A DNA stretch of 62,438 nucleotides, taken from Aplysia californica. Taxonomy: Eukaryota. The position numbers and the translations under genes are program-made. The stretch is from contig NW_004797788.1 in assembly GCF_000002075.1 (NCBI RefSeq), positions 494,894 to 557,331 on the forward strand. The letters run 5' to 3'. This document shows, piece after piece, positions 2,716 through 25,822 of the stretch (the stretch's first letter is position 1; each line of letters begins with the position of its first letter). The notes beneath the pieces were generated by a model. It was not told the origin of the DNA and made no database searches. It worked only from the letters and a program-made list of their open reading frames with translations.

Positions 2716-3397
2716 AAAACCTATGACCTTCACGAGTACATACGGGAAAAATATTCTGCACCTGCAAAAACAAATGTGAAAGGGAAAGATTTGAGGGTTC
2801 AACTGGAACAGGAATCTACTGAAGGACTGGATGAGACAGCAGATAGCCCTGATTATTGGAAGCAAGAGGACATTGAAAGGAGAAAATATGATCAGCCTTC
2901 AGAAGCGGCACATTCCTTTTTGGAAAATGCAAGAACTTCTGAAACTGAATACTATGAGTTTGTTTATATTCCTCCAGAAAAACTTGTTTATGTCGAAAAG
3001 TTTATACCCAAGCTTCTGAGAAATAATGACGCTGAGTGCAAGATTTCTGATGAAGGAATTGAACTTAAAAGCAGATCAAGAAAGAGTGTAAAGATTGGAT
3101 ACGACCTTGTTCAAGAGAGAATGAAAGAAGTTGAAGAAGAATGTATCCCATTTTACAAGCCTGAAAAATTGTCAACAGACAAAGGTAGCAAAATTTGGGA
3201 TGAAATATCAAACCTATACAATTGCATCATAGTTCCGGTGGCTACAGCACAACCTGTGCGGCAAACAAAGAAGCAGTATGTACCAGTCATTCACCACTTT
3301 CAGTTGCAGCGTTCTGCTCTCCACTTGTTCATACTGGAGGGACACATTGACAACATCTGTCTGCAAAGGACAATTCATGTCATTCCTGGCAAAACAG
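2716..3397 (+). CDS. PARP14/PARP9-like macrodomain gene, first exon visible in window (KH-like segment and start of macrodomain A)
   Basis: Acceptor ctccatttttcag|AAA, donor ACA G|gtatat, 682 nt open (phase 0 to 1). Encodes YEFVYIPPEKLVYVEKF...GIELKSRSRKSVKIGYDLVQERMKEV (KH-like pattern) and LHLFILEGHIDNI (macro beta2/GDI-like). Upstream exons are presumably outside the window. Confidence 0.72.
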
Positions 3398-3614
3398 GTA
3401 TATTTTTCCTCAGCTCATTTTTTTTTAACATTTGGACAGAAATTAAGATTGAACAATCTTGTTAGAAGAGTCAAACTGTAGCTTACTGAGATCAATATTA
3501 TCTTTAATTTTTTACCGTCCATTTTGTCGTTGTTTGTTGGCACTTCTGATTTATTATTTAATAAGCCTTATTGTTTTATATGTTTAGGATCATTATGTCC
3601 CACTTTGTTGCATA

Positions 3615-4419
3615 CAGTCAAACCTGTGTAAGATGGCCGCCCATTGGAGAAAAGTGGCCGTATAAGACAGGTGGCCGTCTTAAGCAGGACTGCTCAAGAT
3701 GAAGAAAACAAACTATTTCCATCTGAGGTCCCAATCGAAAGTAGCCACATTGTTGTTTTTGTTGTTGTTGTTGGTTTGTATTTTGTTTGTAATTTTTATT
3801 TTGTTGCTGATTTTGCACAAGGGTGACAATAAAACGAAATGTATCAGACGAGGAAGACCGAGTGCCATGTTAAAACAAACACATGGGTCGCCACCACTCT
3901 GAGAATGAGCGACGCTTCTGTCACAAATTCATGTTGACGTCCTTTGTAACTTTGTTACAAACAGGGTAAACAGTGACCACTCATCTCACTTACGATTTGA
4001 GCATGAGTTCTGGGCGGGGCTTATGGGTTATGAGGGATCACTCGCTTACCTCACCAGCAGCTGAAAATTGGTAGCTATTGGTCAACAGCGGGAGGGGCCT
4101 ACGCAACATGATCGGTTTGAAAGACTACCTAACAACAACAACAGGTGATTGAATTATGACGGATCGCCCACAACGCCAGGGGCCTATGCATAATTTATGA
4201 CAAAACGTAATGGAGTCACTAAGGTGGCGGTCTAAAACCGGTGTTATTGCTTAGTGTGATAGGGGCTGTGTTGTAAAATATGATGGCCGCGGCCGCGTTG
4301 GACAGGTGCCCGTTTTACACAGTAAAATTATATAGAAAAAACGCAAGGGGGGAAATGGAAAGTGGCCGTTTGTACAGGTGGCCGTCTTATGGAGGTGGCC
4401 GTTAGGGCAGGTTTGAATG
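3615..4419 (+). mobile_element. Non-autonomous pogo/Tigger-like DNA transposon
   Basis: TA|cagtcaaacctg ... caggtttgaatg|TA; a closely similar inverted copy lies at 35801-36511. Confidence 0.85.
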
Positions 4420-5430
4420 TACATGTCTTTTGCCTTTTTAAAGTTTCTTTCATGTATGGATTGTTGTCAAATCAGAGGGAACATTTTATTTACAGAATTC
4501 TCTATTGGTTAAACATGTATTGTAAATATCAGATAAAGGCTGTCAGTGTTTGATATCACATGAAGATAGTCCGAAAAAAAAATCAGAAGAAATGTATATA
4601 TTTGGGAATACAAGCAAAGTGATGGCCAGGCAAAACTTCTAAGAGTGAATGGACAAAAATATTTTACTTTCTGCACTGAATGACATTCTTTGTGCATTGT
4701 CTGAAATCAGCACACTGAACTCTGTCCATATGCATATTAGTTGTCTTCTCATCGGTGTAGTGTCTATAGTTAAGATAAGTTTTTGAGAGACTGGAAGGGT
4801 TGGCAGGAAGTATTCTCCCGCCCCCTTGTGAAAATAGATTGTAGGCTTGAATTGAGGCTATGGATTTTGTTGTGAATTGTAACAGGGGACAGATGGCAGA
4901 ATCACTCTTGTGTCTAGGTCCTTATTTCTTTACTGTTTACTATAAGAATGCTTTAGTGATCTGCTGTGGTTTTTTTATAGGCATTGATTTGGGCCGTTCA
5001 TTTGGTAAGGGTTTTGTCGTAGAGCTAAAATGATGTTAAAGGGTTGAATCACCACTTGAATCCAGGAGTACTGACAAGAGAAAAGTGAGGTTACGGAGAA
5101 GGGGAAGGGGATGTTGTTTATCTTTGGCTGTTGATGATTGACAGTTTGAATGAGAGAAAAAAAGGAGACAGACTGTCATTCTACTATATGGGGATAATGG
5201 TGCTCAATAGATTTTTCACACTGTTGCACAAATTGTAGTTGTCTCTTTTCCTGTCTGACTGAAAATTTTCAAGAACTCAAAATGTATTGTATACTTTTTG
5301 ATTTGAAAGGAATTATAGATAGAAAGGAACATGGGTTAATGTGATTTAGTCAAATGTCAAGTATATTTGCCTGGTACATTTGGCCAGCACTTGACCCTGC
5401 TAAATTTCTTAATGGGTGTGTATTTGACAG

Positions 5431-5775
5431 ATGCCATCGTGAGGAGGTCGGAGGAGGAGAAGAAAATTGAGATCAGCATGACCCGTGATGTGGCAGTGAG
5501 TGAGATGCACCACATCATGAAGGATGCACTTTCTTGGGCATCACTGAACTCTAGTGAAATTGGCCTTGTCGTTGATGATGCTCCTTGTCCATTGCATCTA
5601 ATTGCTGAAGTTTTTGTCTCCTGCTGCAAGGCAATCAAGAAATCTGTCAACGTATACTTGGTAGGGCCCAAAAGGGAGGCTGTCGTCCGTGCTTTTAAAT
5701 TCACCTGCAATGAGCAAGATTGGAAAGAAGTCGTGAACAGTGCAAAGAAAGAGGAGTTGGAGTTGGAGTGCAAAG
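5431..5775 (+). CDS. PARP14-like gene exon, degenerate macrodomain A
   Basis: tttgacag|AT ... AAA G|gtaagg, phase 1 to 1. DAIVRR...MKDALSWASLNSSEIGLVVDDAPCPLHLIAEVFVSCCKAIKKSVNVYLVGPKREAVVRAF follows the secondary-structure spacing of a macrodomain C-terminal half. Confidence 0.8.
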
Positions 5776-5839
5776 GTAAGGATCAGTCAAATGGAAAACA
5801 TAATGTACTGCGATGCTACAGTATTGCATCAGAATGTAT

Positions 5840-24477: not shown

Positions 24478-24995
24478 AGTATTTTATAGCACTCTCCACT
24501 GCATAAGGTCATATGAGCGCGTGGGACACACCAAACATTTTCAATTGGTAGGAAATTTTGAATTTTGCCCGGGTGGCAGCTGAAGCCCACTCTTATCGAT
24601 TTTGGACCACAAAGGGATCTTTAATGTGCACAACTTGCCTACTGGACCTCCAAGATTTTTCGCCCTTTTCCGAGAAGGCTAGATGTAGATCTTTCCTATC
24701 AGAAGATCAGGGGTGTGGCCAAAAGACAGCAGTGAGAAGGAGCCAAGGAATAGCAGTAGAAAGGCTGCATGCAGAAAGGGTCAGGAGCCCAGTGGAGGGG
24801 GCAAAGGAGGGGTGGGGGTGGGGGAAGAAAGTGGAGAAGAAAGCAAATGACAAAATATTGCAAGAGAGAAGGAAAGAAGGTGAAAGGAGACAATGTTAGA
24901 GAAGAAAATTTTTCCCGTTGCTTCCCGGATTCGAACCTGGGACCTTTGAATGAGAGGCGAACTCCTTAACCTCTAGGCAGGCCACGAGAGCCGCC
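24478..24995 (-). mobile_element. tRNA-derived SINE (family B), near full length
   Basis: Head with A box and B box (ggttcgaatcc), body and A-rich tail; other copies at 28592-30758 (split) and 47025-47100 (tail only). Confidence 0.8.
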
Positions 24996-25533
24996 TACAG
25001 GTAATGATTGATGTCGTGTGTTGATTCCAATTCCAGTTCCAGCAGTGAGTTTATCACACTTTGTGGGGGCGACCATGGTGAACTCATCTAACCCAGTCTC
25101 TCGATGATGATGGGTTTGTTATTGCTTTCCATCATGCACGCAGGGCGACTTGAATTATAGATAATTGTGAGAAAAAACTTTATGGCGTTTTTCAAGAAGA
25201 GCTGTGTGACAAATCCGTGCATGGGTGTTTTAGGAAATACTGTTGCCAATATAAAAAAAATAGTCTNNNNNNNNNNNNNNNNNNNNNNNNNNNNNNNNNN
25301 NNNNNNNNNNNNNNNNNNNNNNNNNNNNNNNNNNNNNNNNNNNNNNNNNNNNNNNNNNNNNNNNNNNNNNNNNNNNNNNNNNNNNNNNNNNNNNNNNNNN
25401 NNNNNNNNNNNNNNTGATGATTATTATTATTAATGTTATTGTCATTTTTGTTCTTATATATTATTATTTATTATTGTTATAATAAGGTTTGAATGGATTG
25501 ATAGAACAAAGTTGGATTGTGTACTGTCTCCAG

Positions 25534-25764
25534 ATGCCAGATCCTGGTCGTCATGGCATCGGGTTGGGTGATACCAAGACTTCAAGTATGACTACAGGGA
25601 ACACAGGGGGGACCTCTAAAATTTTTCCTTCTGTCACTGGTGGTGGAGGCAGAGGAGGCACTTCAGGCCGAGGAGCATCCAATTTGACTGTTCGAGGAAG
25701 GGCCACTGGTCATACACCTCAAGCTACTGGTGGTAACGTAAAGCGGAAGCATTTAAAGAAATGA
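25534..25764 (+). CDS. PARP14-like gene, probable terminal exon (Gly/Thr/Arg-rich tail with basic end)
   Basis: tgtctccag|ATG in phase 0; MPDPGRHG...GGGGRGGTSGRG...NVKRKHLKK*. AATAAA at 25817 and a GT-rich tract near 25850 follow. An internal donor G|gtaacg at 25732 cannot be excluded. Confidence 0.6.
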   Translation: MPDPGRHGIGLGDTKTSSMTTGNTGGTSKIFPSVTGGGGRGGTSGRGASNLTVRGRATGHTPQATGGNVKRKHLKK

Positions 25765-25816
25765 AATTCAAAGTCAAGCTCTTGAGGGAGCAAAACGTTC
25801 ATCTTTTAACCCTTCT

Positions 25817-25822
25817 AATAAA
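25817..25822 (+). terminator. Candidate polyadenylation signal of the plus-strand gene
   Basis: AATAAA about 50 nt after the stop codon, followed by a GT-rich element (ctgttgtgtgcagtgtttg). Confidence 0.45.

Follow-up and report, generated by a model that had tools for sequence, protein, structure and literature searches.

An Aplysia californica gene of probable PARP14-like descent encodes a KH/macrodomain protein without recognisable WWE and ADP-ribosyltransferase domains

The window analysed here is a stretch of 62,438 nucleotides from Aplysia californica (RefSeq assembly GCF_000002075.1, contig NW_004797788.1, positions 494,894 to 557,331, forward strand). It contains eight of the coding exons of LOC101852116, an uncharacterised RefSeq gene with isoforms of 787, 791 and 715 aa. 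LOC101852116 is very probably a real gene without the ADP-ribosyltransferase (ART) domain. Its product is strictly not a PARP, because the defining domain was looked for and is absent; it is PARP14-derived. A previous reading of this DNA from sequence only had proposed a PARP14-like, catalytic-less protein, and this is supported by fold searches, by the gastropod relatives, and by negative profile searches with positive controls. The chances are about even for the overall explanation, in which a KH/macro protein without WWE and ART, from a PARP14-like gastropod lineage, would serve as a non-enzymatic scaffold or decoy in innate immunity; the immune scaffold or decoy role, suggested by family membership, might equally be right or wrong.

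The exon at 2716-3397 was 100% identical to one database protein, LOC101852116. The gene has 11 coding exons, of which three are located upstream of the window (at about -12360, -5950 and -2190 relative to window base 1, with the gene start ~12.4 kb upstream), and the joined translation equals the 787-aa isoform (XP_005106253, here P0001) letter for letter. The eight exons within the window total exactly 1977 nt in frame, as the sequence-only reading had stated; all of them have an AG acceptor, and the seven internal donors are GT. Adding a 12-nt micro-exon (20873..20884, + strand; RefSeq isoforms X1 and X3) and skipping the second exon gave the other two RefSeq isoforms, P0002 and P0003, exactly, and all three isoforms were thus reproduced from the spliced genome sequence. 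The splice from 23010 to 25534 and the stop at 25764 are common to the three isoforms. The modelling of the alternative 12-nt exon by the annotation pipeline suggests transcript support, judging from how such pipelines work; no RNA dataset was present among the sequencing runs listed for exon 2716-3397 (20 of 24 rows with at least 90% of the exon words). A candidate polyadenylation signal, the motif AATAAA, is located at 25817..25822 (+); alone it is weak evidence, since the window has 1.06 such motifs per kb. Other exon candidates were rejected: the frame did not survive an exon at 15427-15571 or a longer exon at 10870, and the acceptor at 8986 was an alternative only until exon 8242-8327 had been found.

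Pfam searches of P0001 and of the single exons gave no family over the cut-off, the PDB sequence search with P0001 gave no match, and the ESM Atlas returned only leads below 0.8, Macro among them. The AlphaFold2 model of P0001 (16-row alignment) has a mean predicted local distance difference test score (pLDDT) of 52, and is confident at about aa 206-304, 474-656 and 687-715. The fourth coding exon (2716..3397; + strand, as for the others; aa 130-357) covers a linker, a KH domain (204-268), the first part of a predicted split KH (268-303), and the start of a first macrodomain, macro A. The region 204-268 is predicted to adopt a KH fold (Z 7.9-8.8, root-mean-square deviation (rmsd) 1.7-2.6 to KH structures, middling Z values being common in that search); a further N-terminal KH-like unit is of low confidence. 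Macro A (about 320-455), the remainder of which is encoded by the fifth exon (5431..5775, aa 357-472, pLDDT mostly <50), is eroded and has no structural match in the protein's own model, and a profile search linked it only weakly to Aplysia macrodomains (E 0.015). The second macrodomain, macro B, is encoded by the next four exons: its start, including Asp492 (exon 6, 8242..8327, aa 472-500); the part with CVPV at the NAAN-type motif site (exon 7, 8961..9179, aa 501-573); the part with an altered phosphate-binding loop 2 (exon 8, 10943..11158, aa 574-645), which is the best conserved exon; and the final helix with a linker (exon 9, 19910..20003, aa 646-677). A macro fold in structure prediction had been set beforehand as a test, and it was found for macro B: aa 477-657 model as a macrodomain, with human PARP14 as the best match (Z 16.0, rmsd 2.6, 166 aligned residues), although bacterial macrodomains and the second macrodomain (MD2) of PARP9 tie with it within 1 Z. 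The structural alignments to human PARP14 have 10-16% identity.

The macrodomains of PARP9 and PARP14 are inserted in a split KH, which is followed by one more KH (PMC10450202). The model of P0001 contains a strand-helix-strand at 268-303 and a strand-helix at 687-709, and these pieces would fit the two halves of a split KH around the macrodomains; FMRP KH1-KH2 aligns over aa 206-714 in one row only (Z 8.0, rmsd 7.5). The predicted second half lies in exon 10 (22907..23010, aa 677-711; pLDDT 78-85 at 691-710). After it the protein stops with a 76-residue Gly/Thr-rich tail (19 Gly in the last 77 aa), which is predicted to be disordered and is encoded by the last coding exon (25534..25764, aa 712-787 plus the stop at 25762-25764), where KH8-WWE-ART would be. 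The domain string proposed earlier stands for the KH, macro B, the stop codon and AATAAA; the C-terminal 'KH-like' element is only half a domain, and the eroded macro A found no confirmation in the model of this protein.

A search of 1.84 billion representative proteins revealed 11 relatives (E 5e-10 to 8e-4), ten of which are from Bulinus, Biomphalaria, Lymnaea, Physella and Elysia; the other is an unnamed 85-aa fragment (P0007, 54% identical). These pulmonate and sacoglossan proteins include Biomphalaria LOC106067000 and LOC106053092, Lymnaea CAL1526686 and CAL1546549/50, Physella LOC131955011, Bulinus Btru_038606/038617, and Elysia GFR90532. Thirteen relatives were examined, namely the search set with P0015, P0020 and P0021 added and the 85-aa fragment removed. 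Their layout is RRM-KH-macro-macro-KH, with RRMs in 10/13, the macro tandem in 13/13, KH8 in 11/13, and WWE-ART in 6/13. A profile of 11 snail and slug proteins built without P0001 matched P0001 at 116 bits and a second Aplysia copy, the paralog described below, at 102 bits. The altered macro tandem has a signature (C-x-P, W, PP) whose columns are invariant or nearly so in the family, including Aplysia. The Lymnaea relative P0021 was modelled well in the region of macro A, and its tandem (545-908) aligns with the first two macrodomains of PARP14, MD1-MD2 (Foldseek E 1.4e-11; 315 residues, rmsd 15); macro A is therefore macro-derived by homology and has been further shortened in Aplysia. In contrast to most relatives, P0001 has no RRMs and neither Aplysia copy has KH8, and both copies are shorter at both ends. 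Moreover, the accession numbers of the snail relatives suggest tandem clusters, whereas the Aplysia copies are on different contigs. Two relatives have unusual gene models. P0022 (Biomphalaria, 1504 aa) is an ART-less member joined to a neighbouring endonuclease/exonuclease/phosphatase gene in one annotation and separate in others, and is likely a gene-model fusion; P0004 (Bulinus, 2427 aa) has two complete RRM-KH-macro-macro-KH units in tandem without ART, and may be two neighbouring genes merged.

The missing domains were searched for in six-frame translations with profiles built from the relatives only. The search covered 14,710 frames from the window, the 50 kb upstream of it, the 14.6 kb that remain before the contig ends, a 110-kb region around the paralog, and control stretches. 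The macro profile recovered exons of LOC101852116 at 57.7 (exon 8), 13.3 and 9.8 bits. The best WWE-ART match in the window and the 14.6 kb to the contig end was at background (6.7 bits). The same profile found Aplysia ART exons on contigs C20 and C82 at 42, 32, 29, 21 and 12 bits; its reach is limited, since it missed a more distant ART on contig C728 (4.8 bits), which Pfam detects. The earlier claim that no WWE or ART precedes the convergent gene CCDC61 is thus borne out by negative profiles whose positive controls were found. The genome-wide Pfam matches agree: of at least 23 for PF00644 (PARP), at least 7 for PF02825 (WWE) and at least 5 for PF18102 (DTC), none is located on C518 (the contig of the window) or C86 (that of the paralog). 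The KH8 profile matched neither Aplysia copy, and the RRM profile, which matches 10/13 relatives, did not match P0001 and gave nothing over background in the 50 kb upstream. A C-terminal DTC of the DTX3L type was also absent by PF18102 from both contigs, the RING itself not being searched; a DTX3L identity was rejected, as the DTC matches are on other contigs and the relatives end in WWE-ART. No ART-bearing member of this subfamily was found in the Aplysia genome, one search having used a stricter filter, so this result is a floor.

The six WWE-ART relatives are the source of the WWE-ART profile; independently, Pfam PARP matches 4/12 rows of alignment A1 as well as P0020. Through the C-termini of the relatives, the family profile matched the ART structures of PARP15, PARP14 and PARP10 (E 8e-12 to 5e-9), and also that of PARP13. 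The HGT motif is intact in 0/6 ART-bearing relatives (the His is kept in four), and the Tyr of G.G.YF, which we take to be the triad Tyr of PARP14, is Leu or Ala in all five relatives that reach the site. The Aplysia PARPs on C20 and C82 keep both HGT and this Tyr. The triad of PARP14 includes a His and a Tyr (PMC11080071). Judged by these residues, the ART was probably already inactive in the heterobranch lineage before it was lost. Seven relatives are ART-less: P0005 is partial (a cluster mate has an ART), P0006 may be incomplete, and the other five (P0004, P0008, P0012, P0014 and P0021) have their C-terminus after KH8. The same ART-less end as in P0014 occurs in B. glabrata (RefSeq) and B. 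pfeifferi and in the final repeat of a Bulinus protein, and these grouped at 100/100. Repeated independent ART loss is not claimed: parsimony gave four changes on 13 rows, the supported branches force only one, and the approximately unbiased test did not reject one origin of the loss (p 0.0504); the set for these analyses excluded P0005, P0006 and the first repeat of P0004, which are partial or internal. Only two kinds of ART-less end points were observed in the family, before KH8 and after KH8. No orthologue with the Aplysia-type end was found in other species by word-based searches, which gave only P0001 or two Lymnaea proteins; the fragment P0007 is too short to show such an end.

The Aplysia paralog is located at G000:C86:768187-798789, and two exon queries each gave two genome matches. 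Ten exons were assigned to it, leaving its 5' end aside, and give an open frame of 2588 nt with no internal stop, compared with 2364 nt in LOC101852116. The two proteins are 48% identical over aa 40-710 of LOC101852116, and the intron phases are equal at 9/9 positions compared. By inspection of a two-row alignment, the end of the last intron and the start of the last exon are homologous to those of LOC101852116, and a Glu/Arg repeat then follows in the paralog; beyond the homologous start the two tails are unrelated. No ART match was present within 50 kb downstream of the paralog; its last intron and the first 31 kb beyond the gene are free of N. We infer that the ART loss is older than the Aplysia duplication, because the paralog shares the intron phases and the homologous last exon and is also ART-less. 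The divergence of the pair was calculated by the Nei-Gojobori method without transition correction, with bootstrap intervals. The nonsynonymous distance (dN) was 0.41, the synonymous distance (dS) 0.53, and dN/dS 0.77 (95% 0.62-0.98). By part, dN/dS was 0.59 (0.38-0.87) for macro B, 0.66 (0.41-1.05) for macro A, and 0.88-0.98 with wide intervals for the KH parts. In neutral simulations at distance 0.26 (half the synonymous distance), the frame stayed open in 0/500, with a mean of 17.8 stops.

Macrodomains bind ADP-ribose through an adenine Asp, through the NAAN and GGG motifs of loop 1, and through loop 2, which is rich in glycine (PMC10610136). Macro B has CVPV at the site of NAAN, with no GGG after it (the motifs being placed by alignment only), and its loop 2 keeps one of three glycines and has an insertion; the PARP14 MD2 counterpart is PAIGTGNLGFP. 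In macro A, the GDI position is Asp in 0/15 rows. Hydrolase activity is unlikely, because the pocket motifs of both macrodomains are lost or altered. Whether ADP-ribose binding has also gone is less clear: Asp492 lies where the predicted second strand of macro B ends, both Aplysia paralogs retain it, and it might serve as the adenine-binding Asp. The protein would probably neither hydrolyse nor tightly bind ADP-ribose. Macro B might still be an ADP-ribose reader, and the stand-alone protein might dock on targets modified by the active macro-PARPs of Aplysia, but this is unlikely. It would be consistent with the complete predicted fold of macro B, which has the lowest dN/dS of the structured parts, with Asp492 and an aromatic residue before the loop-2 proline, and with the presence of catalytically intact-looking macro-PARPs in the Aplysia genome; however, replacement or interruption affects both glycine-rich loops (1 and 2), macro A lacks Asp at its GDI position, the 13 snail relatives have no Asp at the Asp492 column, and there is no Pfam Macro match.

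Somewhat less probable still is that the gene has no dedicated function and is a duplicate in decay, under constraint that is weak and non-specific. A dN/dS of about 1 in the KH and linker parts, the eroded macro A, the losses of RRM, KH8, WWE and ART, the unrelated paralog tails, and the long branch leading to the Aplysia pair in the family tree would all fit such decay. However, the frames of 2364 and 2588 nt have stayed open over the observed dS, where about 18 stops per copy are expected from substitutions alone, and the dN/dS interval of macro B excludes 1.

The dominant-negative option of the sequence-only reading, in which the protein would sequester DTX3L or PARP14-like partners that are active, has been weakened and is now improbable. 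KH-like domains mediate PARP9/PARP14-DTX3L contacts (PMC11080071), and a likely DTX3L gene (macro and DTC matches) is located on contig C245; but in human PARP14 DTX3L is bound by KH8 within KH8-WWE-ART (PMC13224862), and the Aplysia protein ends before KH8 and has mostly lost its ADP-ribose-binding motifs. This role is a better fit for the ART-less snail proteins, in which KH8 is kept, than for the Aplysia protein. A truncation artefact, with WWE/ART exons within N stretches, absent from the assembly of 4332 contigs or far downstream, is very improbable: the N stretches in the last two introns of LOC101852116 (168 and 148 bases) have unreadable content but are too short, if their lengths are true, for KH8-WWE-ART, which needs well over 1 kb of coding sequence; there is no N between 25764 and 37990 (from the stop to the CCDC61 end); the paralog, N-free over its last intron and 31 kb downstream, shares the start of the last exon; and all three RefSeq isoforms end at the same stop.

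The scaffold or decoy explanation could be formulated as follows. In heterobranch gastropods, an ancestral RRM-KH-macro-macro-KH-WWE-ART gene might have lost the residues needed for catalysis and those of the ADP-ribose pocket. Later, in the line leading to Aplysia, a new last exon would have taken the place of KH8-WWE-ART and the RRMs would have been lost; the gene would then have duplicated, with both copies retained. The split KH is predicted to be closed around the macrodomains, and the remaining surfaces may serve to bind host partners or pathogen proteins, perhaps also RNA, with no writing or erasing and probably no reading of ADP-ribose. In favour of this explanation, human PARP14 has a catalysis-independent function (PMC11080071), and PARP14-type proteins act in an innate immune setting (PMC13224862). 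Several points weigh against it. The sequence links to the relatives are weak at the E values given, P0001 has no Pfam match and a low mean pLDDT, and macro A is without a structural match in its own model. The KH parts of P0001 have no GxxG motif, which weakens RNA binding. The overall dN/dS of 0.77, with values near 1 in the KH parts, is as compatible with relaxed constraint as with an arms race, and such near-neutral values speak against a strongly conserved function. The kept Asp492 could be the adenine-binding residue, and the immune link comes from family membership alone.

A broader and rather unlikely extension is that the heterobranch family consists of fully disarmed PARP14 mimics, with dead or deleted ART and ADP-ribose-blind macrodomains, which might act as fast-evolving decoys or sensors for pathogen proteins that target the PARP14/DTX3L axis, the Aplysia pair being the minimal form. 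If true, the tandem clusters in Biomphalaria, Bulinus and Lymnaea would be unrecognised immune loci in vector snails of schistosomes and flukes.

The convergent gene downstream is a CCDC61 orthologue (37990-56023, minus strand), as the sequence-only reading had named it; its first exon matches the head of human CCDC61 (E 3e-5). By inspection, further exons on the minus strand are at about 52019-52354, 50702-51040, 48342-48782 and 37993-38172, and the last reading frame ends at 37993. Just 3' of LOC101852116, a fragment of a CENP-B N-terminal helix-turn-helix (26967-27305, +; E 0.0013, under the cut-off) is likely a Tigger/pogo transposon remnant. An interspersed repeat of ~530 bp at 24461-24996 (similar near 28600-29000), which by appearance resembles a short interspersed nuclear element, is 81-84% identical to three copies in the paralog introns. 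Broken reverse transcriptase pieces of the long interspersed nuclear element type were observed by inspection ~14.3-16.7 kb upstream of the window (L006), and also in the paralog introns (G000:C86:773689-774573 and 795327-796839), where one set is in the last intron. C2H2 zinc-finger gene exons are located upstream of the paralog (G000:C86:740619-746617, -), and its neighbourhood differs from that of the window.

Other macro-PARP loci are also present in the Aplysia genome. The intron-containing macro-PARP-like genes at G000:C82:574922-639040 (-) and G000:C20:1713000-1739880 (+), in which HGT and G.G.YF are intact, are candidate active PARP14-like enzymes. On G000:C728 there are two divergently oriented, long single-frame KH-macro(-ART) genes, L029:2421-6563 (-) and L030:4016-6931 (+), of 1381 and 972 aa. 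HGT is present in the first; the second lacks a Pfam PARP match, has no HGT in its ART-like end, and is possibly another disarmed copy. At G000:C245:610112-632498 (-) a macro match lies upstream of DTC matches on one strand, and this locus likely encodes an Aplysia DTX3L with a macrodomain.

It is already known that PARP14-like genes of invertebrates have undergone lineage-specific duplication and domain shuffling (PMC13224862), and the Aplysia immunome survey counted 17 PARPs by their catalytic domain (PMC9334734). LOC101852116 is not named in the main text of that survey, and no publication on it or its gastropod family was found by locus and protein identifiers and by topic, although supplements could list it. 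The whole gastropod family looks disarmed, and is undescribed in the literature searched. Domain loss is to be expected when an immune family evolves fast, and humans also have PARP forms that are inactive or ART-less. The Aplysia gene would represent a PARP14 scaffold kept under coding constraint after the writer was lost and the reader and eraser pockets eroded, and might serve as a natural test of an open question, the role of the PARP14 KH and macro modules apart from catalysis. Surveys based on Pfam do not see the family, some members of which occur in snails that are parasite vectors.

Several known systems could be compared with the Aplysia protein. In human PARP14 (ARTD8/BAL2) the macrodomains come after KH domains and are inserted in a split KH (PMC10450202), an order also predicted for the Aplysia protein; it is the best structural match for macro B and for the macro tandem of a relative, and its order of RRM, KH8, WWE and ART is retained by the snail relatives. 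However, PARP14 has three macrodomains and the Aplysia protein a putative two, without RRM, KH8, WWE and ART and with altered pocket motifs. Human PARP9 (ARTD9/BAL1) has two macrodomains inside a split KH, as is predicted for the Aplysia protein, and belongs to a non-catalytic ART lineage; unlike the Aplysia protein, it keeps an inactive ART and a second KH, both binding DTX3L, and its MD1 is an active hydrolase. ZAP-S, the short form of PARP13, is an antiviral PARP-family product without the PARP domain. PARP12S is another such antiviral product, an ART-less splice form, and PARP9 and PARP13 are inactive (PMC7050484). The likeness to PARP9 is considered convergent, because PARP9 is a vertebrate duplicate (PMC13224862). 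The macrodomain-bearing DTX3L of invertebrates shows that an RRM/KH and macrodomain layout existed before vertebrates (bioRxiv 10.64898/2026.04.23.720386); the Aplysia protein differs in having no DTC, the DTC matches being on other contigs and the relatives ending in WWE-ART. ZAP-S and PARP12S arise by splicing from genes in which the domain is still encoded, and have N-terminal zinc fingers, whereas the Aplysia protein has KH and macro domains and its gene itself has lost the domain.

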